Assembly (NCBI GenBank): GCA_028710985.1
Contig: JAQTTB010000001.1
Span: 295,397-359,396 of the forward strand
Direction: 5' to 3'
Source of the DNA: Patescibacteria group bacterium
Lineage (GTDB): Bacteria > Patescibacteriota > Patescibacteriia > JAHJFT01
Length of the DNA: 64,000 nt
Part shown: one piece after another, positions 3,083-58,474 of the stretch
How the letters are laid out: each line of letters begins with the position of its first letter
Numbering within the stretch: position 1 is the stretch's first letter
Translations under genes and position numbers: made by a program
The notes under the pieces: model-generated
Databases searched by the model: none
What the model was told of the DNA's origin: nothing
Seen by the model: the letters and a program-made list of their open reading frames with translations, nothing else

Positions 3083-3426
3083 ATATTTTATTAGTGGCCC
3101 CGATGGCTATCGGGGCATTTATGCTTAATAAGGTCGGCGGAGCCGACACTTTGTCTAAAAAACCCGCCCAGATGCCCTGCGGCATTGCCGCAGGGACGGG
3201 TTTATGGTATTTAGCAAGCCAATCATACTATACCTTGATTATTTTTTCAAGACGCATTACACTTGGAATACGAGTAATGCACACTGTCCACAGTTTATCA
3301 ACAATTTATTAACTTTTTGGCTTATTTTAGCCAATTTTCAAATCCCCGGCTTTGTGATAATATTGGGTAGCAGCGCCCGGAAAAACGAATCGCCCCCCGG
3401 GCATAAAAAAAATAAAAAATAAACCT

Positions 3427-6269: not shown

Positions 6270-6372
6270 GTTCGGGGTGGCTGCTAAGCGCCGTTTAGAA
6301 ATGCAAAGAGTCGCCTAATGAAATTGAGAGCGCACCTGCCTGCCGGCAGGCAGGTCAGCCACCCCGAAACTT
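6270..6372. repeat. composite palindromic element: 13 bp stem (TTCGGGGTGGCTG / CAGCCACCCCGAA) enclosing REP-like palindrome CCTGCCTGCCGGCAGGCAGG
   Basis: The two 13-mers are perfect reverse complements at 6270-6282 and 6360-6372. The F1 palindrome lies in the enclosed loop. A second hairpin (ACTTTTGG..CAAAAGT) follows at 6375-6400. Confidence 0.45.
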
Positions 6373-9363: not shown

Positions 9364-9700
9364 CTGCCTACGCTCTCGCTGCGCCTGCCTGCCGGCAGGC
9401 AGGCTTGAGCTTCGGCAAGGCGGGCGGTGACACGTCGCTCGCGAGCGACGTGTCGGTGGGAATCGTCCCGATGTTCCGCTGCGCGGAAATCGGGACGATT
9501 CGCGAAACTTAGATCATCATAGATAATCAGGCCACGGCGAGAATTGCACTCGCGCATAGGAGTTTTGCAGACTCCCGCCTTACTGCTTGGCTACGTGGCC
9601 TGATTATCTACGATGTACTTTTAGCTTTTAAAGAAAAGTTTTAGTTTTGCAGATTTACCCGCCGTAGCCCCGATAGCAATCGGGACGAAGGAGGATGGCC
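9361..9700. repeat. palindrome-dense intergenic block (several nested/adjacent inverted repeats) in the divergent PBP1A/polA promoter region
   Basis: Five elements in 340 bp: (1) CCTGCCTGCCGGCAGGCAGG at 9385-9404; (2) 26 nt perfect palindrome GACACGTCGCTCGCGAGCGACGTGTC about 9430-9455; (3) ATCGTCCCGAT..TTCCGCTGCGCGGAA..ATCGGGACGAT about 9458-9497; (4) 17 bp inverted repeat TAGATAATCAGGCCACG / CGTGGCCTGATTATCTA at 9518-9534 and 9596-9612, enclosing two small hairpins; (5) CCCCGATAGCAATCGGGACG about 9672-9691. Confidence 0.6.
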
Positions 9701-9898: not shown

Positions 9899-12565
9899 AT
9901 GAAAGAGCAAAAAAAGAAAACCCTGCTTATTTTGGACGGCAATGCCCTGTTGCATCGCGCCTGGCACGCCTTGCCGCCCCTAACCGACCCCAAGGGCCGG
10001 ATCGTTAACGCGGTTTACGGTTTTATTTCCGTGCTCTTGAAGATGATTAAGGAACAGGCGCCCGAATACATGGCCGTGACTTTCGATAAAGCCGGCCCGA
10101 CTTTCCGGCATGAAGAATTTAAAGAATATAAAGCCACCCGCGTTAAACAGCCGGACGAGCTTTACGCGCAAATCCCCATGGTCAAGGATATTTTGCGTGT
10201 TTTTAATATTCCGGTATTTGAAGCCGCGGGTTATGAAGCCGACGACGTCATCGGTACGCTTTCCCGCATTCTTGATCCGCGTATGGACGTTGATTCAGTC
10301 ATTGTCACCGGCGACATGGATACTCTTCAGCTCGTTGACCGGAACACCCGGGTTCTGGCTTTCGTGAAGGGTTTGAGCCAGGCCACCCTCTATGGCGAGT
10401 CTGAGGTGCGCGAGCGCTACGGCCTCCCGCCCGATCATCTCATTGATTACAAAGCAATTGCCGGCGACGCGTCCGACAATATTCCCGGCGTGCCGGGCAT
10501 TGGTCCAAAGGGCGCCGGTGATTTGATTCGCGAATTTGACAGTCTGGAGAATGTGTATCACGAGGTTAAAGTCCATCCGGAAAAGTTTAAAAAAGGCACT
10601 TTGGAAAAATTACAAAAAGGTGAAAAAATGGCCAAATTAAGTCAAAAACTGTCCAAGATTATTATTGACGTGCCCATTAAGTTCGCGTTGGAAAAATGCG
10701 AGCTTGGCAAGTGGAACCGCGACGAAATGGTTGCCGCGCTTGGTGAATTTGGATTCAAGTCACTTATTGCGAAATTGCCCGGCGCGGAATCGGAAAATAA
10801 GGGAACGATGGAACAAGGGAACAATAGAACAAGCGGGCGGGTAGGCTCTATCCGGGAGATGGAAAAAGCATTGGCCGGAATTGCCAGAGAAAAACAAATC
10901 GCCGTGGCTGCGGAGATTGGGGCGGCCGGGCTTTTCGGTGCGAGCCTTGCCGGTCTGGCGGTTTATTTTCCGGAATCGGGCGCGCAGTTTTTTGATCTTG
11001 CAAGATTATCAAAAACCGATTTAAAAAAATTCGTCGATCTCGCGGCGCCGGTTCTTGAAAATGAAAATATAAAAAAAATCGGCCATGACCTGAAGCGCGA
11101 AGCCGCATTGCTCGCAGGGCAGGGCATCCGCTTGGCTGGTTTTGATTTTGATGTCATGATTGCCGCCTATCTCCTGTCATCCGGCACGCGGAGTTATGAC
11201 CTTGAGTCCGTCATACTGCAGGAATTCGGCGAGGAGATGAAAATCGGAACCGCGGACTCGGCGGCAAATAAGATAAAGCGCATCTGGGATCTTCGGGACG
11301 CGCTTGAGCCGCGTCTTAGCGAGGCCGGCATGGCCAAATTGTTTCAGGAGATCGAAATGCCGCTCGTGCCCGTCCTTGCCGCCATGGAGCAGATCGGCGT
11401 GAAGATTGATTCCGGTTTTTTAAATAAAATGGCAGTAAAAGTAGATGAGAGCATTGAAAAGCTCAGCAAGAAAATTTATAAAATGGCCGGCGGTGAATTC
11501 AATATCAATTCTCCGACCCAGCTCAAGGAAGTGCTTTTCGAAAAACTTGCCATTTCCCCGGCCGGCATCCGCCGCGGCAAGACCGGGCTTTCCACCGCCG
11601 CGCCGGAACTTGAAAAAATGCGTGGTCAGCATGAGATTATTGATTTGATTTTTGAGCACCGCGAACTCGCTAAGCTCAAAAGCACCTATATTGACGCCCT
11701 GCCCCGGCTGGTTGATAACGCGTCCGGCCGCGTACATACGAGTTTCAATCAGACCGTAACTTCAACCGGCCGGCTCTCCTCTTCAAACCCCAACCTGCAA
11801 AACATTCCCATCCGCTCCGAACTTGGCCGTGAAATCCGCAAGGCTTTTATCGCCGAGCCGAAGAATCTTTTGGTTGCGGCCGATTACTCGCAGATTGAAC
11901 TTCGCATTGTTTCCGCCTTGGCCGGCGATGAGCGCATGATCCAGGCGTTCCGCGAGAAACGCGACATTCATACCGCCACGGCGGCGGCCATCTGGGGCGT
12001 TCCGGAAGACAAAGTTGATAAAGATATGCGCCGATCCGCGAAAGCCATAAATTTCGGCATCATTTACGGCCAGGGGCCGCGCGGTCTCGCGCAGTCGGCG
12101 GGCATAAGTTACGCCCAAGCCGAAGAATTTATTCGCAAATATTTTGAGGTTTACTCCGGCGTGGCCGAGTACATGGAGCGTACCCGCGCTCTGGCGCGGG
12201 AGTTTGGTTATGTTGAAACAATTTTTGGCCGGCGGCGTTATCTTCCGGAAATTAATTCCCACGTGGCCCAGCTTCAGGCCGCGGCCGAACGCATGGCCAT
12301 CAACATGCCGGTGCAAGGCGCGGCCGCGGATATCATGAAAATCGCCATGATTAAGATCCACGCCGGCTTGTCCAAGATTTCCCCGAAGTCAAAAATGATT
12401 CTGCAGGTGCATGACGAACTGGTGTTTGAGGTGCCGGAGACTGAGGCGAAAAAAGTTGCGGCTTTCGCGCAGGAAGAAATGGAGAGCGCGGCCAAACTCG
12501 CGGTGCCCATCGTCGTTGAAGTCGAGTCCGGTAAAAATTGGGGGAGCATGGATAAGATTATATAG
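9899..12565 (+). CDS. polA: DNA polymerase I
   Basis: 888 aa. N-terminal 5'-3' exonuclease/FEN domain (LLILDGNALLHRAWHA...GDASDNIPGVPGIGPK). Central 3'-5' exo-like region. C-terminal polymerase motif A (AADYSQIELRI), motif B (RRSAKAINFGIIYGQ) and motif C (LQVHDELVFEV). Confidence 0.95.
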   Translation: MKEQKKKTLLILDGNALLHRAWHALPPLTDPKGRIVNAVYGFISVLLKMIKEQAPEYMAVTFDKAGPTFRHEEFKEYKATRVKQPDELYAQIPMVKDILRVFNIPVFEAAGYEADDVIGTLSRILDPRMDVDSVIVTGDMDTLQLVDRNTRVLAFVKGLSQATLYGESEVRERYGLPPDHLIDYKAIAGDASDNIPGVPGIGPKGAGDLIREFDSLENVYHEVKVHPEKFKKGTLEKLQKGEKMAKLSQKLSKIIIDVPIKFALEKCELGKWNRDEMVAALGEFGFKSLIAKLPGAESENKGTMEQGNNRTSGRVGSIREMEKALAGIAREKQIAVAAEIGAAGLFGASLAGLAVYFPESGAQFFDLARLSKTDLKKFVDLAAPVLENENIKKIGHDLKREAALLAGQGIRLAGFDFDVMIAAYLLSSGTRSYDLESVILQEFGEEMKIGTADSAANKIKRIWDLRDALEPRLSEAGMAKLFQEIEMPLVPVLAAMEQIGVKIDSGFLNKMAVKVDESIEKLSKKIYKMAGGEFNINSPTQLKEVLFEKLAISPAGIRRGKTGLSTAAPELEKMRGQHEIIDLIFEHRELAKLKSTYIDALPRLVDNASGRVHTSFNQTVTSTGRLSSSNPNLQNIPIRSELGREIRKAFIAEPKNLLVAADYSQIELRIVSALAGDERMIQAFREKRDIHTATAAAIWGVPEDKVDKDMRRSAKAINFGIIYGQGPRGLAQSAGISYAQAEEFIRKYFEVYSGVAEYMERTRALAREFGYVETIFGRRRYLPEINSHVAQLQAAAERMAINMPVQGAAADIMKIAMIKIHAGLSKISPKSKMILQVHDELVFEVPETEAKKVAAFAQEEMESAAKLAVPIVVEVESGKNWGSMDKII

Positions 12566-30300: not shown

Positions 30301-33300
30301 GAATTTGACTGGTCCGCAAGCACCAATGTGCAGGATGTGCTTGATGACCTGGACGCCACTCTGACCACGGTTTCTACCTCGGCCATGCTTTGGACCGACG
30401 CGGGTACATATATATATAATACCCCGGCCGGAGACATTAACCGGTTTTATGATACCGGCAGTGTCAACTTTGATGCCACCAACACCACGCTTTATGTTGA
30501 CGCCATGAACAATCGCGTTGGTGTCGGCACGAATAACGCTTTAAGCGTTTTCCATATTCTTGGCAGCTACCCGCAGTTATTAATTAATGACAGTTCGGTT
30601 CCGAGCTTCCTGTCTTTGAGGGGTGATGCCAATATCTTCTTCAACAATGCCTCCAACTACAGGATCGCTAGCCAGGCTTATGCAAACCGCGGCACGGCCA
30701 CGGGCGATACAGTGAGATTTACCATTCAGGGCTCCAATGGATATGTGGGTATTGCCACTTCAACTCCGCAAGTGATGCTCCATGTGTACGACGGGAGTTT
30801 CCGTCAGCAAGATACAACCGGCGGCAAGACCGGGCAATTGACCATCTCCACCCTCTCTTCTGGTACGCTAATTCAGGAAACCAATAACGGTCGTATTACG
30901 TATAAGGCATATGCTCATACTTGGCAGACTCATGCGGGAACAGAAATTTTCCGAACCAGTGACGGGTTGACCGCAGTTATATTTAATGGAAATATTTTTT
31001 CTTACGGTAATCTTTACACCTCATCTTCAAAATTATTTGTTGGAAGTGACACAACTCTCGCCGAATCAACCGACCGCCTTGATTCCGGCGCCTACAATGT
31101 GGGCGTGGCCGACAACTTCTCGTGGTCGGCTTCAACCAATGTCCAGTTTGTGCTGGAAGATTTGGACCTCGCCATCACCAACGCCTCATCATCGGCCAAT
31201 ATCTGGAAAGCAAACGCTTCATATATATATCCGGCCTCAACCACGGCCAATGTTTTCCCCTCATCAAACAATGCGCAAAGCCTGGGTGCGTTTGGCAGCG
31301 CCTGGAAAGATATTTACGCTTCAGGCACAGCGTATTTAACCAACGTAACGGCGGCAAATTATGTTAATGTTTCCGACGCGACCGTCGGATATAAAATCGG
31401 CGGGAACATTATTTTAAGAAATCCCTATACTCACAATACACTTATCGGGCAAAACGCAGGGGCAAACATCAATTCAGATGGCACGGATAATACTTTTATT
31501 GGTTATTTCGCTGGGTACACAGCCACTTCAACAGATTATAACGTTTTTATCGGTCCTTACGCCGGCCAGAACAATGCTGCCGGCGCTAATAATTCCTTTA
31601 TCGGCTATGCCGCTGGCAAAGACAACACTACTGGCAGTGGCAACTCCTTCATCGGTTATGTCGCCGGCTATGCCAATACCATTGGCAATTATAACTCCTC
31701 CATCGGCTATGCCGCCGGCTATGCCAACACCACCGGCTCTTACAACTCCTTTATCGGCAATGCCGCCGGCCAAACCAACACCACCGGCGCGAATAACACC
31801 GGGGTTGGTTATTCCGCTTTATACTCCAACACCACCGGCGTGAATAACACCGCGGTTGGTTATTCCGCTCTATTCTATAACTCATCGGCCACAAGCACGG
31901 TGACAATTGGTTATCAGGCGGCGCGAGGAACCGCGGCATATAGCAACCAAAATGGCGTGTATATTGGTTACAGAGCGGGGTATGTTGTTCAAACAGGGTC
32001 GGATAACAATATAATGATCGGTTTTCAAGCCGGAAACAGTATCACAACCGGCGCTAATAATATATTGATTGGTTATGATGTTGATACACCGCTCGCAACC
32101 ACATCTAACTACTTAAACATTGGCAATCGGATTTATGGAAGTCTAACGGATGGAATTTTAAATATCCAGCCAAACGGTGATTCCAACAATTATTCCCGAT
32201 TTGCGACGGTTGATGCACAACCCATACTATATTTCGTTTCATCAACCATGACTAACTATTCCGGCTTCCGCTTGAATTCCTCTACCGGCGAAATGGAGTA
32301 TCGCGATGAGGATTCAGCGACGTATACACCATTTGACACAATCGCGGCCGGAGCGGGTATCTGGTCAACCGGCGCTTCATATATATATCCGGCCTCCACC
32401 ACGGCCAATGCTTTCCCCTCATCAAACAATGCGCAAAGCCTGGGTGCGTTTAGCAGCGCCTGGAAAGATTTTTATGCCTCCGGAACTTCATATCTCACCG
32501 GCGTATTGAATTCTGACGGAGCTCTTGGCGCGCCAAGCTACTCTTTCGCCGCAGATTCTGATACAGGTATGTTTTGGGCGGGTACGGGCAATGTTCGTTT
32601 CTCTTCAAACGGAGCGAGCATAGTGACCATGGGCAATTCTGAAGTGGATGTCGGCGGTTCAATTCTGCCAACCGCCAATAATACCCGAGATTTAGGCGCT
32701 TTCTCTTATGCCTGGCGCAATATCTATGCCTCCGGCACGGCATTCTTAACCGGTATTCAAAATTCAGTCGGAGCCGTCGGCACGCCAAGCTACAGTTTTG
32801 CCGGAGATACAAACACAGGAATCTACAGTCCATTATCCGATGCGGTTGCGATCGCTGTAAATGGTGCTCAACGATTCCAGGTAACCGCAACTGGCGCACA
32901 AGTAACCGGAACTGTCTATTCGGACGCAAATAATTCACGGGACATCGGCTACTTTGGAAATGCCTGGAATGATATCTTCGCGTCCGGTACAGCCTTCCTC
33001 GCGGATGCAAATCTCTCCGGCAATGCCACGGTCCTGGGTTATGTCTCTACCACGCAGTTATTTATTGATAGTATTGATGTTCAAACCAGCGCTTCCCGGA
33101 CAACCTCGGGCGCTTATGTCATTGGTGTGGCCGACAATTTCTCCTGGTCCGCCTCAACCAATGTCCAGTTCGTGCTGGAAGATTTGGACCTTGCGATCAC
33201 CAACGCCTCCTCATCCGCCAATATCTGGAAACTCGGGGCTTCATATATATATCCGGCATCCACCACGGCCGATATCCTGGCCGGCGCCGCAACTCCGGAC

Positions 33301-36300: not shown

Positions 36301-39300
36301 GAAGCTTTGAGATTTTCCACGGAAAGAGCATGGACATTCCGCCAGAGTGGCGTGGGGGGAGCGGCGAAACTGCAACTTAAAGACCTCAGCGGGCAGAAAT
36401 ATTTTGAAATTACCGGATTTGATGATTCTGTTACGGCCTCTTTTTACAATGACTTTGCAACACCTGCGGGTAGCAGGGTTTTGTTGTTACCAGGCGGCGG
36501 CAACGTCGGCATTGGCACAACCGCGCCAAATTATCTCCTGCATGTCTCCGGCACGAGCGCGTTCATGGATAATATGTACGTCTCGTCATCTGAATTATTT
36601 ATCAATACCAGCACTTATCTTTCCGAATCAACGGCAAGAGACGATTCCGGCGCCTACAACGTCGGCGTGGCCGACAATTTCTCCTGGTCGGCTTCAACCA
36701 ATGTCCAGTTTGTGCTGGAAGATTTGGACCTTGCCATCACCAACGCCTCATCGTCGGCCAATATCTGGAAAGCAAACGCTTCTTATATATATCCGGCCTC
36801 AACCACGGCCAATGTTTTCCCTTCATCAAACAATGCGCAAAGCCTAGGAGCGTTTGGTAGTGCCTGGAAAGATATTTACGCTTCAGGCACAGCGTATTTA
36901 ACCAACGTAACGGCGGCAAATTATGTTAATGTTTCCGACGCGACCGTCGGATATAAAATCGGCGGGAACATAATTTTAAGAAATCCCTACACCCGCAATA
37001 CACTTCTTGGGCAAGGCGCGGGAGCAGCGCTTAATTCAGACGGCACGGACAATACTTTTATCGGTCATGGCGCCGGAAATGTTGCCACTTCAACGGATTA
37101 TAATGCCTTCGTTGGTGCTTACGCCGGCTATGCCAATACTATTGGTAATTATAACTCCTTTATTGGCTATGCCGCTGGTTTTTCCAATACCATTGGTGCG
37201 AATAATACCTTTATCGGTAATGCCGCCGGCCAATCCAACACCACCGGCGCGGGTAACATCGCAATCGGTTCGGCTGCTTTATATACCAATTCCACTAGCG
37301 CGAATAATACCGCGATTGGTAATGCTGCTTTACGCTACACCACCGGCGCGAATAATACCGGGGTTGGTTATGCCGCTTTATACACCAATACCACTGGTGC
37401 GGGTAACACCGGGGTTGGTTCTTATACTCTATACGCCAACACCACCGGTACGAATAACACCGCCATCGGTTTATATGCCTTAAGCGCTAACACCACCGGC
37501 TCATATAACACCGCGATCGGTTATTATTCTTCACTCTATAACTCATCGGCCACAAGTACGGTGGCAATTGGTTATCAAGCGGCACGAGGAACCGCGGCAT
37601 ACAGCAACCAAAACGGCGTGTACATTGGTTACAATGCCGGGTATGCGGCTCAGACAGGGTCAAATAACAATATAATGATTGGTTATCAAGCCGGAGATAG
37701 TATAACAACGGGATCTGGCAATTTGCTTATTGGCTATGACGTTGATAATGCCACAAGCACGGCTTCAACCAATTACATAAATATCGGAAATACCCTTCAG
37801 GGCTGGATCGGTGGAAAAATTTATCCATACAACCAGGGAACACAGGATTTGGGCGCATACGGCTATGCCTGGAAAGATATCTTCGCCTCCGGCACGGCCT
37901 TCCTCGCGAACGCGAATCTCTCGGGCAATGCCACGGTCCTGGGTTATGTCTCTACCACGCAGTTATTTATTGATAGTATTGATGTTCAAACCAGCGCTTC
38001 CCGGACAACCTCGGGCGCTTATGTCATTGGTGTTGCCGACAACTTCTCCTGGTCCGCCTCAACCAATGTCCAGTTCGTGCTGGAGGATTTGGATCTCGCG
38101 ATCACCAACGCCTCATCTTCAGCCAACCTTTGGAAAGCAAATGCTTCATATATATATCCGGCCTCAACCACGACTAAAATTTATGTTCCAAAGCAAGCGT
38201 ATCCAATTCCATCCCTGACTTTTTCCGATGATCCGGACACGGGTTTCGGGTCCATAACCGCGAATCAACTAACTTTTTACGCCGGAGGAACCGAATCCTT
38301 CACCGCGAAGGCTTCGGGTATATTAAATTATATAAACTGGAAAGCTCCGGCAACGAATAGCCAATTAAATGTTTTGGGAGCAATCACTACGGGAAGCGGA
38401 AATACGGCCTTTAGAATTGGTAATGAGAATGCTCTTTATGGAACCGACAGAGTTCTGGCAGTTTATTCCGGAAATCTTAACGGCGAACTGCTGACTGTCT
38501 TAGCAAACGGCAGTGTCGGCATGGGTGACACTACGCCGGATTTTGGCTTAGAGGTCGCCACTTCAACCGCGAGCGGTTTTCTGGCGGTTTCTTCAGTTTC
38601 GGGTAATAACGGCGACCTGTTCATGGTGGATGAAGCCGGTCGGGTCGGCATCAACACCACCGATCCCGGTTACAAGCTGCATGTTGTTGGCACGAGCGGC
38701 TTTGACGGCAGTCTTGCTGTTTCATCAACCAATCTTATCTTTGACGCATCGGGTACGGCTATCGCAAGCTCAACCGACCGTCTGCATTCTGGCGCATATT
38801 TCGTCGGCGTTGATTCAGCCAATATTACTCAATCGGCTTCAACCAATGTCCAGTTTGTGCTTGAGGATTTTGACCTTGCCATCGTTTCGGCCGGTTCAAA
38901 ATGGACCGATGCCGCGGGTTATATTTATCCGACCGTGGCCGGCGATTACGGCGGAACCGGCATGAAAATAGCTGACGACGGTGAAATTAGCACCGATGGC
39001 AATCTCACGGTTGACGGTAAGGTTGCAATTGGCACAACTATATTGGGTACGCGGATGTTGAACATTATTCAAGCCGGCACGGGAGTTAGTAACTATGGCA
39101 TCAATGTGACAGCATCGGGCGCGGGCACGAACAATTATGCCATTTACGCAACCGCTACAGGAGGAGCCGCGGCGAATTGGGCCGCCTATTTCGGTGCCGG
39201 TAATGTCGCGGTCCTTAATGGCAATATGTATGTTGGCGCAACCACGGAGACGATTACGGATACGACTTTTAGTATGGCCGGTGATGATTTCTATGATTCA

Positions 39301-51377: not shown

Positions 51378-51384
51378 AAATAAA

Positions 51385-51421
51385 AAAAGAGAGGCTTTAC
51401 CAAATATTGCCTCTCTTTTTG
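51385..51421 (+). terminator. intrinsic terminator AAAGAGAGGC..GCCTCTCTTTTT
   Basis: 10 bp stem with a T5 run, 8 nt after the stop. Confidence 0.55.
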
Positions 51422-51567
51422 TATTGACAATCAAGGCGCTTTACCCTAAAATACCATACATCACGGGCCGTTAGCTTCCGCCTTCGCTCTCGTTTTACTC
51501 GAGCTACGGCGGACAGGCAGCTGGTGTTCGTCTTGAAGCATATGCTATTAATTATAGTTTAATCAGT

Positions 51568-51640
51568 GGGCTCGTAGCTCAGTTGGTAGAGCGCCTCCAT
51601 GGCATGGAGGAGGTCAGGAGTTCGAGACTCCTCGGGTCCA
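51568..51640 (+). tRNA. tRNA-Ala (anticodon GGC)
   Basis: Folded by hand: acceptor stem GGGCTCG/CGGGTCC with the G3:U70 alanine identity pair; D-arm GCTCAGTTGGTAGAGC; anticodon stem CCTCC/GGAGG with loop ATGGCAT (U33, GGC, A37); T-arm GGAGTTCGAGACTCC; discriminator A. The 3' CCA is not encoded. A flanking inverted repeat AATCAGTG/CACTGATT extends the acceptor stem. Confidence 0.85.
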
Positions 51641-51774
51641 CTGATTAAATTATTTTTTATTCAATATTCGCTGAAGTAGGCATGCCTGTCCGCCGAAGTA
51701 CCGATAGCAATCGGGACGTAGGCGGAGAAGAGGTCACCCCGACATAACGTCGGGGTCGGGACCAAAATAATACT

Positions 51775-52362
51775 ATGCCCATTCCATCGCGCGAACTCGG
51801 CCGCCGTTCCATCCGGTTAAAAGGATATGATTATTCCCGACCCGGATTTTATTTTGTGACGCTTTGCACGTTTCAGAGAGTGTGTTTGTTTGGCGAAATA
51901 GTGGATGATCAGATGATTTTGAACAGGCTTGGTAAAATCATAATTGATGAATGGCGCAATATTCATAAGCGATACAGCGAAGTCGCTTTGGATAAATATA
52001 TTATAATGCCAAATCATATTCATGGAATTATTCAAATTAATGTAGGGGCGACCCTTGCGGTCGCCCCGAATAGGGCGGACCGTTCAGGCGCATGGGTCAG
52101 GGCAGGCGCAAGGCCTGCCCCTACAGCGCACGATATAAGTTTGGGAGATATTATAGGGTCATTCAAATCATTGTGCGTCAATGAATGGATAAAGAATAAT
52201 GCGAATGACCCGATTCGCCAGGCCGCAAATATTTGGCAGCGCAATTATTACGAACGCATTATCCGTACGTTAGCCGAATTATCAGAAACACGCAAATATA
52301 TTCAAGAAAATCCTATAAAATGGCAGGCGGATGACAATCATCCGGACAATTTTAAAAAATAA
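51775..52362 (+). CDS. IS200/IS605-family Y1 (HUH) transposase, REP-associated tyrosine transposase (RAYT)-like, with GC-rich palindromic insert in the HUH-Tyr linker
   Basis: 195 aa. HUH motif MPNHIHGII. Catalytic-Tyr region IWQRNYYERIIRT...YIQENPIKW is typical of TnpA_REP/IS200-like proteins. Residues about 90-120 (VGATLAVAPNRADRSGAWVRAGARPAPTAH) are encoded by two GC-rich hairpins. Confidence 0.65.
   Translation: MPIPSRELGRRSIRLKGYDYSRPGFYFVTLCTFQRVCLFGEIVDDQMILNRLGKIIIDEWRNIHKRYSEVALDKYIIMPNHIHGIIQINVGATLAVAPNRADRSGAWVRAGARPAPTAHDISLGDIIGSFKSLCVNEWIKNNANDPIRQAANIWQRNYYERIIRTLAELSETRKYIQENPIKWQADDNHPDNFKK
52045..52120. repeat. REP-like palindromes inside the RAYT ORF (GGGGCGACCCTTGCGGTCGCCCC at 52045-52067; GGGCAGGCGCAAGGCCTGCCC at 52100-52120)
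   Basis: Both are perfect 8-9 bp stem palindromes. They are much more GC-rich than the surrounding ORF, but they are in frame. Confidence 0.6.
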
Positions 52363-52367
52363 CCGTA

Positions 52368-52407
52368 GGGGCGACCCTTGCGGTCGCCCCGTATAGCGCG
52401 GTCGCCC
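52368..52407. repeat. REP-like palindrome GGGGCGACCCTTGCGGTCGCCCC (second copy) immediately 3' of RAYT stop, followed by partial third copy
   Basis: Identical 23-mer to 52045-52067. It starts 6 nt after the stop codon. GCGCGGTCGCCC follows. Confidence 0.6.
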
Positions 52408-52450
52408 AGATAAAAACATTGCGTCAATTTATTTATAATCACCCCATAAT

Positions 52451-53530
52451 ATGTCTCTCAAGGTCGGCATCGTCGGATTGCCAAATGTCGGAAAATCAAC
52501 CCTTTTCAAAGCGCTCACGCGCAAGAGCGTTGATATTGCGAATTATCCGTTCTGCACCATTGAACCCAATGTCGGGGTGGTTGAGGTGCCGGACGAGCGG
52601 CTCGCTCGCCTTGCCGCGGTTTCCAAGCCGGCGCGCATCGTGCCGGCCGTGATTGAATTCGTTGATATTGCCGGGCTCGTGGCCGGCGCGAGCCGGGGCG
52701 AAGGCCTGGGCAATAAATTTCTTTCGCATATCCGCGAGGTTGACGCCGTCTGCCAGGTGGTGCGCGTTTTCCGCGATCCCAACGTCACGCACGTGCATGA
52801 TAAAATCGATCCCAAGAACGACATTGAAATCATCAATACCGAGCTAATCATGGCGGATCTGGAGACAATAAAGCGCCGCGACGAAACCTTGGCCGCAAAA
52901 GCCAAAGCCGGCTTGAATCCGGCGCTGGAAAAAAGTATCGGTACTATTAAAAAAATAATCTCCGCGCTTGAACGCGGCGAGCTTGCGAATTCACTGGAGC
53001 TTGACGAAGAAGAGCGCGAATCCGTCTACGACCTGCACCTTCTCACCGCCAAGCCGTTTGTCTATGCCGTAAATTGCGACGAGGAGCAGATTAAAAATAA
53101 AAACTGGCAGCATGGACTGCCAGCGGGGCTTGAATACGTTCCATTTTGCGCCAAGCTTGAGGCCGAAATCGCCGATCTTCCGCCCGCCGAAGCCGGGGAT
53201 TTCGTCACTGCCCTGGGGTGGGAACACGGCTGCCTGGATTCATTGATTGTTTCCTGCTACAAAATTTTGGATCTCATTACATTTCTTACCACCGGGCCGG
53301 ATGAAACCCGCGCCTGGACGGTCCGCGCAGGGGCCAAGGCACCGGAAGCCGCCGGAGTGATTCACACGGATTTTGAAAAAGGATTCATCCGCGCCGAAGT
53401 CTGCGATTGGAAAAAATATGTTGAAGCCGGGAGCGAGGCCGCAGCCAAAGCCTCGGGCTGGGTGCGCACCGAAGGCAGAGACTATATCATCCAGGACGGC
53501 GACGTGTGTTATTTTCTCTGCAACAAATAA
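52451..53530 (+). CDS. ychF: ribosome-binding ATPase YchF (Obg-like ATPase)
   Basis: 359 aa. G1 motif GIVGLPNVGKSTLF. G3 DIAGLV. G4 NCDE (YAVNCDE, which is the YchF-specific form). C-terminal TGS domain. Confidence 0.9.
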   Translation: MSLKVGIVGLPNVGKSTLFKALTRKSVDIANYPFCTIEPNVGVVEVPDERLARLAAVSKPARIVPAVIEFVDIAGLVAGASRGEGLGNKFLSHIREVDAVCQVVRVFRDPNVTHVHDKIDPKNDIEIINTELIMADLETIKRRDETLAAKAKAGLNPALEKSIGTIKKIISALERGELANSLELDEEERESVYDLHLLTAKPFVYAVNCDEEQIKNKNWQHGLPAGLEYVPFCAKLEAEIADLPPAEAGDFVTALGWEHGCLDSLIVSCYKILDLITFLTTGPDETRAWTVRAGAKAPEAAGVIHTDFEKGFIRAEVCDWKKYVEAGSEAAAKASGWVRTEGRDYIIQDGDVCYFLCNK

Positions 53531-58436: not shown

Positions 58437-58474
58437 CCTGCCTGCCGGTAGGCAGGTTACCCGGGGTGTTTTTT
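58437..58474. terminator. REP-like palindrome CCTGCCTGCCGGTAGGCAGG plus T-run; bidirectional terminator between efp and recA
   Basis: Same palindrome family as 2317, 6340 and 9385. Followed by GGTGTTTTTTATTTT. Confidence 0.55.

Follow-up and report, generated by a model that had tools for sequence, protein, structure and literature searches.

In the DNA analysed here, a stretch of 64,000 nt of a Patescibacteria MAG that we refer to as the window, a RAYT gene that is single-copy within these 64 kb (51775-52362 in the ORF list; forward strand (+), as for all features below unless stated otherwise) lies between a tRNA-Ala gene and ychF and encodes a protein of 195 aa. An exact look-up at NCBI returned this ORF under the annotation 'transposase' (MDD4995154.1, Patescibacteria MAG). 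The upstream neighbour, tRNA-Ala(GGC), was located at 51568-51641 by ARAGORN and recognised by the Rfam tRNA model with 61 bits. The RAYT ORF starts 133 nt past its end, in agreement with the first-pass annotation, which had placed the two next to each other. A promoter-like sequence (TTGACA-17-TAAAAT at 51424-51452; promoter scan) is listed with tRNA-Ala, and the terminator scan detected no terminator-like site in the interval between tRNA-Ala and the RAYT gene. At a permissive threshold, Rfam gave nothing besides the tRNA between 51300 and 52700.

In a diverged relative, the orthologous locus L201, the same TPR gene, tRNA-Ala(GGC) and ychF surround the RAYT gene. Protein identity between the window and L201 amounts to 60% for RAYT, 73% for YchF and 63% for the TPR protein, and the background conservation of fourfold-degenerate sites is ~44%. 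With pN = 0.245, pS = 0.58 and a dN/dS of ~0.26 relative to L201, the RAYT gene is under purifying selection, and it is a chromosomal gene that is probably inherited vertically.

The RAYT gene is preceded by a conserved leader element (51727-51765, 10-48 nt before the ATG) which is composed of GAAGAGGTCA, a hairpin of 8 bp and CGGGACCA. The hairpin, ACCCCGAC-ATAAC-GTCGGGGT at 51736-51756 according to the hairpin scan, is not a REP, and the RNA fold of the leader has a z-score of -5.3. A block of 38 nt of the leader is homologous with L201 (score 41 compared to a shuffle maximum of 25). The first part of the L201 leader is a perfect 19 nt copy of positions 31-49 of tRNA-Ala (score 38 compared to a maximum of 21), located 38 nt past the tRNA and just before the RAYT start, and the window carries a degenerate counterpart of this copy. 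A four-sequence DNA alignment had pointed to an upstream degenerate GTAG-headed REP at ~51717-51743; judged by L201, this candidate is a tRNA-Ala-derived fragment followed by the conserved non-REP hairpin and was discarded.

Motifs, profile matches and fold of the RAYT protein

The identification of the gene product as a HUH nuclease of the RAYT/TnpA_REP type was borne out by its motifs, by a profile match to the structure of E. coli TnpA_REP (4ER8) and by its predicted fold. The homologue search returned more than 7,900 homologues of the window protein, and the profile built from homologues matched 4ER8 at E = 3.8e-5 with the HUH, W and Y motifs in register. This profile was needed for the match, as a search of the PDB with the single sequence (phmmer) gave SUMO-E1 matches only, which we consider spurious. 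Against the NCBIfam equivalog NF047646 (REP_Tyr_transpos), the protein scored 59.1 bits (E = 4e-16) at a cut-off of 80, and is thus related to this equivalog, yet not a member of it. With 21.9 bits for Pfam Y1_Tnp, the protein falls just short of the gathering score (23), as the domain is split by the insert described below.

The HuH motif, N80-H81-I82-H83 (52012-52023), aligns with H59-M60-H61 of 4ER8 and matches the HuH signature NH[IFV]H of TnpA_REP subclass 2.4; HIHGII corresponds to residues 81-86, and both H81 and H83 are invariant across 105 homologues. The W motif, W154-Q155-R-N-Y-Y-E160-R161-I-I-R164 (52234-52266), was located by the profile alignment to 4ER8, in which W154/Q155/E160/R161/R164 align at the same spacing with W94/Q95/E100/H101/R104 of the E. 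coli enzyme. In the latter, W94, Q95, E100, H101 and R104 contact the GTAG guide (PMC6006769). The sequence RNYYERIIRT had at first been read as the catalytic-Tyr motif; it is present, but belongs to the W motif, and since the E. coli counterparts of W154/Q155/E160/R164 contact the GTAG guide, RNYYERIIR is to be regarded as the GTAG-recognition motif. The Y motif is located further downstream, Y175-I-Q-E-N179-P180 within KYIQENP (52297-52314), and aligns with Y115...N119-P120 of 4ER8, where Y115 is catalytic and N119 is a metal ligand (PMC3479197). Y175 is hence the predicted catalytic tyrosine. Compared to the subclass 2.4 signature YIxNNP, YIQENP agrees at 5 of 6 positions, with E replacing the first N; Y175 and N179 are invariant in the 105 homologues, and I176 and P180 reach 90% conservation or more. 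The protein ends 15 aa past the Y motif and lacks a conserved tail domain at its C-terminus. It retains all 12 positions that are invariant in the family and almost every position conserved at 90%.

The AlphaFold model (pLDDT 82, pTM 0.76) has a Y1-transposase fold with the HUH motif on a beta-strand and the Tyr on the C-terminal helix. Its core is predicted with a pLDDT above 90, compared to ~50 for residues 90-120, and the insert forms a low-confidence loop between the strand 81-88 and the helix 123-141. In a Foldseek search with this model, the top 30 matches (E below 1e-3) were all Y1 transposases or TnpA_REP, headed by ISDra2, IS608 and TnpA_REP; the match to 4ER8 had an rmsd of 3.7 A.

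REP hairpins in and beside the gene

The first-pass annotation had reported a 23 nt palindrome, GGGGCGACCCTTGCGGTCGCCCC, within the ORF (52045-52067) and again 3' of its stop (52368-52390). We confirmed both copies, of which the second begins 5 nt past the TAA stop rather than 6 nt as noted earlier. The 23-mer occurs exactly twice in the window, with no further match at up to 3 mismatches, compared to 0 occurrences expected from 100 shuffles. The repeat extends beyond the 23-mer: 45 nt, 52034-52078 and 52357-52401, are 89% identical and include a GTAG head at the 5' side. The designation of the palindromes as REP-type was appropriate, as in each of them a GTAG head precedes a perfect, G+C-rich hairpin.

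The first intragenic copy, REP1 (52042-52067), comprises the GTAG head, a perfect stem of 9 bp and a loop of 5 nt, GTAGGGGCGACC-CTTGC-GGTCGCCCC, and is translated as V90-G-A-T-L-A-V-A-P98. The exact REP1 26-mer recurs, dispersed and mostly outside RAYT genes, in metagenomes from other sources (at least 120 contigs); REP1 is a widespread REP type according to this metagenome scan, which is silent on the host genome. The second GC-rich palindrome that had been described in the ORF is likewise real, and was retrieved by the hairpin scan as GGGCAGGC-GCAAG-GCCTGCCC at 52100-52120. It has the design of an inverted REP: its reverse complement, GTAGGGGCAGGCCTTGCGCCTGCCC, shares the CTTGC loop with REP1, and its stem core differs from that of REP1 and is self-complementary. 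We refer to the complete inverted element as REP2 (52100-52124, minus strand). It reads GTAGGGGCAGGC-CTTGC-GCCTGCCC on the minus strand and is translated from the plus strand as (R)AGARPAPT. Between REP1 and REP2 lies a spacer of 32 nt (52068-52099) encoding NRADRSGAWV(R). Together, the two hairpins encode VGATLAVAP...RAGARPAPT in a loop of ~29 aa rich in Ala, Pro, Arg and Gly, as the earlier description of an Ala/Pro/Arg-rich insert had it. REP1(+) and REP2(-) are inverted with respect to each other and separated by 32 nt, which corresponds to the REPIN geometry of Bertels & Rainey (2011); their arms are only 76% complementary, because the stem cores differ.

The downstream flanking REP, GTAGGGGCGACCCTTGCGGTCGCCCC (52365-52390), begins 2 nt past the stop and is identical to REP1 over 26 nt, in the same orientation and 323 nt apart from it on the same strand. 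Thus, a canonical GT[AG]G-headed REP is present within 1000 nt of the gene, as is characteristic of subclass 2.4. An additional 3' half-copy of the REP stem, GCGGTCGCCCAGA (52398-52410), was recognised in the repeat family and in the fold of 52360-52415, and is either a remnant or an alternative pairing partner. A role of the downstream REP as intrinsic terminator was considered and rejected, since it is not followed by a T-run and is not called by the terminator scan. When the whole 64 kb were scanned for GT[AG]G-headed perfect hairpins, the three GTAG-headed G+C-rich ones were all located at the RAYT gene, and three GTGG-headed ones elsewhere (one G+C-rich at 3094 and two A+T-rich). Hence, neither the 23-mer search nor the hairpin scan revealed dispersed GTAG-headed REP copies elsewhere in the window.

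Family-wide occurrence of the insert and subclass assignment

The first-pass annotation had called in-frame REPs in a transposase unusual, and had left it to a family alignment whether the insert is unique to this protein. In this alignment, the insert region is shared across the family, which refutes the former view, and VGATLAVA...RAGARPAPT is nearly invariant in close homologues. Homologues from more than 15 phyla have hairpins in this very loop, which connects the HUH strand to the following helix. In the HUH-to-alphaC insert, 55 of 72 genes contain a perfect stem of 8 bp or more, compared to 4 of 72 each for two control segments, the N-terminal 210 nt and the C-terminal part. A GT[AG]G-headed hairpin was detected in the insert of 57 of these genes, the other 15 having no recognisable REP in the loop, and about one third also carry such a hairpin within 300 nt up- or downstream, whose sequence is in many cases that of the internal hairpin. 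The spacer is altered by indels and tandem duplications among close homologues, as illustrated by two of them (P0062 and P0101) that are 100% identical outside the insert and differ by a duplication of 8 aa within it.

In-frame REPs have been described as a striking trait peculiar to TnpA_REP subclass 2.4 (Quentin et al. 2018, PMC6006769), in which they make up a variable beta3-alphaC insertion (PMC6006769). The signature of this subclass is NH[IFV]H / WQ / YIxNNP at a median length of 194 aa (Table 1 in PMC6006769). In the window protein, residues 90-118, encoded by REP1, spacer and REP2, constitute such an insertion. On the basis of motifs, length, insert and REP type, the gene fits this subclass, and we assign the locus with good confidence as a REPtron of TnpA_REP subclass 2.4, which corresponds to RAYT Group 4 (Bertels et al. 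2017). This locus is typical of the subclass, whose intragenic REPs were already published as its hallmark in 2018, and it extends subclass 2.4 to a small Patescibacteria genome. In-frame REPs in a REP-processing enzyme are accordingly a regular property of this subclass and should be flagged neither as decay nor as novelty.

By analogy to the characterised enzymes of E. coli, S. maltophilia and Marinomonas, the protein is expected to attach to a REP that has folded on single-stranded DNA, with the helix carrying W154/Q155/E160/R164 reading the GTAG foot of the REP, and Y175 together with a metal ion held by H81/H83/N179 cutting beside the hairpin. Published biochemical assays, which address the metal-dependent cleavage of hairpin-bearing single-stranded DNA by way of a 5'-phosphotyrosine intermediate, cover group 2 and group 3 enzymes only; nuclease activity, the role of the REPs as substrates and the functional neutrality of the translated loop are what we infer for the window protein. 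As is common in the subclass, the inverted REP pair is accommodated in frame in a surface loop joining the HUH strand (beta3) to helix alphaC and is translated as a disordered segment rich in Ala, Pro, Arg and Gly, which leaves the catalytic core intact. During evolution, the hairpin ends persist, and the spacer and the stem cores change by slippage, REP replacement or compensatory change. Of the two explanations put forward by the first-pass annotation, a hairpin insert tolerated in the linker and a decaying gene copy, the evidence favours the former; the latter is at odds with an intact ORF in which the catalytic residues are present.

Alternative readings and comparison with known systems

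The alternative that survives best is that the intragenic REP pair is kept by selection as a cis-acting element rather than tolerated as a passenger, which we consider possible, though doubtful. The element could serve as a site of self-recognition, by which the nuclease, or a hairpin in the mRNA, regulates the expression of its own gene, or it could be a protected 'master copy' that keeps enzyme and substrate linked and co-evolving. The position of the REPs in the beta3-alphaC loop is nearly fixed across more than 15 phyla, and the internal REP of a gene usually belongs to the same variant as its flanking ones. The comparison with L201 points in the same direction: the REP1 26-mer is identical in both orthologues, with 8 of 8 fourfold-degenerate sites conserved, for which the probability by chance is ~0.001 given the background of ~44%. 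REP2 of L201 is GGGCAGGG...CCCTGCCC, with a compensatory C:G to G:C change, and both REP2 and the downstream REP differ from their L201 counterparts by compensatory pairs. Moreover, the hairpin ends are kept while the spacer changes. The conservation of REP1 at the nucleotide level and the compensatory changes in the stems suggest that the role of the hairpins may go beyond that of passive passengers. However, repeated gene conversion or re-insertion combined with selection for an open frame alone would yield the same pattern, and the 15 of 72 genes without a recognisable loop REP indicate that the element is not obligatory. Close homologues also swap REP2 variants and degrade REP1 (P0007 compared to P0012), and in the published model the loop lies away from the DNA-binding and catalytic sites (PMC6006769). 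In its stronger form, namely that the REP pair is an ancestral cis-element under nucleotide-level selection by which the nuclease recognises its own gene, be it for autoregulation or as a master copy, we regard this reading as rather unlikely; if true, subclass 2.4 would represent a self-referential unit of enzyme and substrate. With identical REP1, compensatory changes in REP2 and the flanking REP and a hypervariable spacer, the pair of window and L201 provides a small and clean data set on why hairpins persist in the loop.

It is considerably less probable that the RAYT locus arrived as an element, or as part of one, that integrated site-specifically at tRNA-Ala. The RAYT gene lies directly downstream of tRNA-Ala, and the 19 nt tRNA copy in L201 with its degenerate counterpart in the window would be in line with such an origin. 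This fragment is, however, located between the tRNA and the RAYT gene, so that the gene is not bracketed, the repeat search found no copy of the tRNA 3' end past the RAYT gene, and the window ORF list contains no integrase or recombinase gene. The arrangement is furthermore common to species with near-saturated synonymous sites, so that any such event must be ancient. The earlier description of the place as a typical integration neighbourhood is, as far as a recent event is concerned, unsupported, given this lack of an integrase and an order of tRNA-Ala, RAYT and ychF that is kept in a relative with ~44% fourfold-site conservation; the short fragment derived from the tRNA is a hint of an old event only.

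We consider it very improbable that the unit is an autonomous insertion sequence of the IS200/IS605 type, with hairpins on the same strand as its ends, the downstream REP on the right and either REP1 or the leader hairpin on the left. The TnpA proteins of IS608 and ISDra2 have a matching fold, and the identical hairpins 323 nt apart would be in keeping with such ends, but NHIH and YIQENP are of the class 2 (TnpA_REP) type, as opposed to DH[VI]H and Y[IV]ENQ in subclass 1.1, and the segment from REP1 to the downstream REP holds only the C-terminal half of the gene. In addition, the window contains a single copy, at an orthologous chromosomal position in the diverged relative, and no tnpB adjoins the RAYT gene in the ORF list. 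Hardly tenable is the reading of the gene as a decaying RAYT copy that was disrupted by REP insertions and is turning into a pseudogene, for, although two REPs lie within the coding sequence, the HMM scores fall just under the curated cut-offs and the window is devoid of dispersed REPs, the frame of 195 aa is unbroken and of a length typical of the subclass, the 12 invariant and nearly all 90%-conserved positions are kept, dN/dS is ~0.26 towards the syntenic orthologue, the core of the structure model is confident and the insert is common to most family members.

As a probable REPtron of subclass 2.4, the locus was compared with four known systems. With subclass 2.4 as defined by Quentin, Siguier, Chandler & Fichant (2018, BMC Genomics 19:475), it shares the HuH/W/Y signatures, a length of ~194 aa, the lack of a C-terminal tail domain, the variable beta3-alphaC insertion built of in-frame REPs, flanking REPs of the long or 'double-foot' type with a GT[AG]G head and the patchy distribution over many phyla. 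It differs in its host, a Patescibacteria (CPR) MAG, whereas the paper names Cyanobacteria, Bacteroidetes and 'various phyla' (PMC6006769), in the E for the first N of the Y motif, in the flanking REP, which is direct rather than inverted relative to REP1, and in having no REP copies elsewhere in the 64 kb. The E. coli TnpA_REP or RayT (YafM; 4ER8; subclass 2.2 / Group 2) has the same HUH/Y1 fold, with its HUH, WQ...E.H..R and Y...N-P residues in register with the window protein at a sequence identity of ~14%, and the gene is likewise flanked by GTAG-headed REP hairpins, which are the cognate substrates. The E. coli REPs are, however, bulged and located outside the gene only, and the E. coli protein, in which there is no REP-encoded beta3-alphaC loop, carries a short insertion between alphaC and beta4 as well as a C-terminal tail that is auto-inhibitory.

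The TnpA proteins of IS200/IS605 (IS608, ISDra2; subclass 1.1), which gave the best Foldseek matches, have the same fold and the same chemistry of HUH and Tyr on hairpin-bearing single-stranded DNA. They differ by their DH[VI]H and Y[IV]ENQ motifs, are obligate dimers and belong to multicopy mobile insertion sequences, often with tnpB, in which the hairpins are subterminal ends of the element instead of dispersed REPs or in-frame inserts. A parallel to the intragenic hairpins as such is offered by the RPEs of Rickettsia and the intragenic GTAG/CGTC REPs (Di Nocera et al. 2013), small palindromes that are also inserted in frame, translated as tolerated surface segments and often dimers encoding 20-30 aa. 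At the locus described here, in contrast, the host gene is the REP-processing enzyme itself, and the REPs are placed in one and the same loop in the majority of a widespread family rather than at scattered sites in unrelated genes.

Organisation of the RAYT locus

The tRNA-Ala(GGC) gene (51568-51641, + strand; ARAGORN, Rfam 61 bits) is followed on the same strand by the RAYT reading frame of 195 aa (51775-52362), downstream of which ychF starts at 52451. The 23-mer GGGGCGACCCTTGCGGTCGCCCC occurs in exactly two copies in the window, at 52045 and 52368; no third copy appears even with three mismatches allowed, and the chance expectation is none. The repeat around this 23-mer comprises 45 nt at 89% identity, includes a 5' GTAG and yields an intragenic hairpin (REP1, 52042-52067, + strand) and a downstream REP (52365-52390, + strand). 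The second intragenic palindrome (52100-52120, within REP2, 52100-52124, - strand) is of the same design but inverted; as reverse complement it reads GTAGGGGCAGGC-CTTGC-GCCTGCCC and shares head and loop with REP1, while the stem core differs and is still self-complementary. When the entire window was scanned for perfect hairpins with a GT[AG]G head, three G+C-rich, GTAG-headed ones were found, all at the RAYT gene, along with three GTGG-headed ones away from it, one G+C-rich (3094) and two A+T-rich. Since the only G+C-rich GTAG hairpins sit at this gene, the REP palindromes reported inside and downstream of the reading frame in the first-pass annotation are confirmed, far above chance. Neither the 23-mer search nor the hairpin scan found REP copies in the window outside the REPtron, i.e. 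the RAYT gene plus its REPs.

The window contains other palindromes. A second dispersed family without GTAG head, (A/G)CCTGCCTGCCGG(C/T)AGGCAGG(T/C), is found at 2316-2337, 6334-6355, 9383-9404 and 58437-58456; since at least the copy at 58437 forms part of a longer hairpin with a T-run behind it, the family may represent terminators, or a REP-like family of another kind with no relation to the window RAYT. An identical 18 nt palindrome, TCCGACG-CGAC-CGTCGGA, is present 5.5 kb apart at 31372-31389 and 36934-36951, and its copies may lie within duplicated genes.

The encoded protein (MDD4995154.1, annotated 'transposase', from a 744,538 bp contig of a Patescibacteria MAG) scores just below threshold with Pfam Y1_Tnp (21.9 bits, gathering score 23) and NCBIfam REP_Tyr_transpos (59 bits, cut-off 80), as the domain is interrupted by the insert. 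A homologue search gave more than 7,900 matches, many annotated 'REP element-mobilizing transposase RayT', and a profile of 29 homologues matched E. coli TnpA_REP (PDB 4ER8) with E = 3.8e-5. This alignment places H81/H83 on H59/H61, WQRNYYEHIIR on W94-Q95...E100-H101...R104 and YIxxNP on Y115...N119-P120. In the E. coli enzyme, Y115 is the catalytic tyrosine and H59/H61/N119 are metal ligands (Messing et al. 2012, PMC3479197), and the counterparts of the W-motif residues touch the GTAG guide (PMC6006769). Y175 (KYIQENP), aligned to Y115, is therefore the predicted catalytic residue, and RNYYERIIRT, previously taken for the catalytic-Tyr motif, is the W motif instead. With 105 homologues as input, AlphaFold gave a model with a pLDDT of 82 and a pTM of 0.76; pLDDT exceeds 90 in the core and is around 50 for residues 90-120, the loop joining strand 81-88 to helix 123-141. 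All 30 Foldseek matches in the PDB at E <1e-3 were ISDra2, IS608 or IS200 TnpA, or 4ER8.

The REP-encoded loop across the family

In the alignments of 29 and 105 homologues, V90, G91, A92, A115 and P116 are at least 90% conserved, and the insert has the consensus VGATLAVA...RAGARPAPT. We retrieved 80 genomic loci that represent over 15 phyla, including Bipolaricaulia, Omnitrophica, Cyanobacteria, Chloroflexota, Nitrospirota, Bacteroidota, Desulfobacterota, Gammaproteobacteria, Planctomycetota and Patescibacteria, and inspected the DNA from the HUH to the WQRNY motif; hairpins were counted over 72 genes. In this stretch, 63/72 genes had a perfect hairpin with 6 bp or more. Perfect stems of at least 8 bp were present in the insert (mean 112 nt) in 55/72 genes, compared to 4/72 in each of the N-terminal (210 nt) and C-terminal (189 nt) controls, and 57 of the 72 inserts carried a GT[AG]G-headed hairpin. 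Thus, the 30 aa insert, which had been regarded as unusual, is a regular part of these proteins. Two architectures recur, the inverted REP pair of the window and one long hairpin of the 'double-foot' type, GTAGGGGCnnnn-loop-nnnnGCCCCTAC. 'VGA' and 'APT' in the proteins derive from the outer GTAGGGGC and GCCCCTAC, and the inner stem bases vary between genes with complementarity kept. As expected for intact genes, none of those examined had a + strand REP head in the frame that gives an in-frame TAG. About one third of the genes have REPs within 300 nt up- or downstream, often of the same variant as the internal REP; in the 10 kb flanks on each side of the other loci, REP copies outside the REPtron are absent for most genes, with exceptions such as L064 (24 copies) and L071 (9 copies).

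The nearest relative of the window protein (P0002, 60% identity) is encoded on metagenome contig L201. Between the two genes, the 26 nt of REP1 are identical, with 8/8 fourfold sites kept (chance ~0.001 at 44% background), a compensatory pair separates the REP2 copies (GGGCAGGC/GCCTGCCC versus GGGCAGGG/CCCTGCCC) and a compensatory G:C to A:T change the downstream REPs (GGGGCGACC versus GGGGCAACC). The RAYT-to-ychF space holds a single REP plus a half-copy in the window, compared to a BIME-like array of five REPs in L201 (6663-6925), one + REP (GTAGGGGCAACCCTTGTGGTTGCCCC) followed by four inverted copies ~60 nt apart. Among closely related proteins, indels and tandem duplications alter the spacer between the REP-encoded ends. 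With the insert set aside, P0062 and P0101 show 100% identity, and an 8 aa duplication in the spacer distinguishes their inserts. REP2 variants can be exchanged among close relatives (RAGASPAPT in P0044, GATARVAPT in P0092). The exact REP1 26-mer GTAGGGGCGACCCTTGCGGTCGCCCC was found in at least 120 metagenome contigs (L081-L200) with many different sample prefixes, and 121/123 occurrences among the matches listed lie outside RAYT genes, which marks the 26-mer as a genuine extragenic REP type of wide distribution. In metagenome contigs it is frequently translated as 'VGATLAVAP' in spurious ORFs. Tandem amplification of the REP-encoded module inside the gene was seen in P0065 (three VGATLVVA...RAGTSPAPT units), L071 (three direct REPs 81 nt apart, 10287-10471), L066 and L014; together with the spacer duplication of P0062/P0101, the loop behaves like a slippage-prone minisatellite.

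The main rival explanation, that the intragenic hairpins are a selected cis-element, is possible, albeit rather unlikely. Their fixed position, nucleotide-level conservation, compensatory stem changes and match to flanking REPs are compatible with it, but all four patterns fit repeated conversion by other REP copies, or their re-insertion, equally well, and a recognisable REP in the loop is missing in 15/72 genes.

Age and neighbourhood of the gene

L201 has the gene order of the window (TPR/O-antigen-ligase-like gene, tRNA-Ala(GGC), RAYT, ychF), with 73% identity for YchF and 63% for the TPR protein. Fourfold sites were kept at 15/27 (56%) in RAYT without the insert, 53/119 (45%) in YchF and 112/261 (43%) in the TPR protein, with pS of 0.58, 0.736 and 0.672, pN of 0.245, 0.183 and 0.248, and dN/dS of ~0.26, ~0.07 and ~0.18, respectively. 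By gene order and substitution rates, the RAYT gene is a long-standing occupant of this chromosomal site under purifying selection.

The tRNA had been considered a typical integration neighbourhood. A conserved leader common to both loci (51727-51765; L201 5994-6040), 10-48 nt upstream of the RAYT ATG, consists of an 8 bp hairpin, ACCCCGAC-N5-GTCGGGGT, followed by GG(A/T)CCA. In L201, a 19 nt stretch identical to tRNA-Ala positions 31-49 (score 38, shuffle maximum 21) stands before the hairpin; its window counterpart is degenerate. The leader resembles a vestigial tRNA 3' half with replaced T-arm and may go back to an ancient event at the tRNA. A tRNA-directed integrated element is nevertheless quite improbable: the gene order is conserved in L201, and the fragment does not bracket the RAYT gene. 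As judged from the conserved order and rates, the RAYT gene is not a recent arrival. An autonomous IS200/IS605-type insertion sequence is very improbable. A pseudogene, or the decaying copy proposed earlier, is hardly credible given the dN/dS of ~0.26.

A near-consensus (11/12) promoter-like TTGACA-17-TAAAAT (51424-51452) upstream of tRNA-Ala would drive the tRNA and, possibly, the RAYT gene; since a scan found no terminator-like site between the two, co-transcription is possible. Directly before it, after the TPR gene, lies an inverted repeat of 17 nt, flanked by A and T runs (AATAAAAAAAGAGAGGC / GCCTCTCTTTTTGTATT, 51379-51425), that resembles a bidirectional terminator. A 16 nt inverted repeat (51504-51519 / 51683-51698; CTACGGCGGACAGGCA / TGCCTGTCCGCCGAAG, 94% complementary) flanks tRNA-Ala on both sides, its arms lying 49 nt before and 42 nt behind the gene; in L201, the upstream arm is kept and pairing only in part. 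The repeat may represent a processing stem or what is left of a palindromic element.

Comparison with TnpA_REP subclass 2.4

We propose to read the locus as a subclass 2.4 REPtron in which the intragenic REP pair is translated as a disordered surface loop and the RAYT gene is functional, single in the window and probably vertically inherited. Group 2 and group 3 enzymes were shown to recognise GTAG plus hairpin and to cleave by Tyr (PMC3479197 among the sources); by analogy, single-stranded DNA carrying these two features is most likely the target of the window enzyme, with Y175 most likely making the cut. Quentin, Siguier, Chandler and Fichant (BMC Genomics 2018, PMC6006769) split the TnpA_Y1 superfamily into subclasses, of which TnpA_REP subclass 2.4, corresponding to Bertels' RAYT Group 4, has NH[IFV]H, WQ and YIxNNP motifs, a median length of 194 aa and REPs of the 'long' and 'double foot' types. 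The window protein agrees with subclass 2.4 in every trait tested; the insert is therefore a normal part of such proteins, contrary to the first-pass annotation, and an in-frame REP insert is already known for this subclass (PMC6006769). The locus is a real, well-delimited, textbook member of a described subclass, here in a CPR host.
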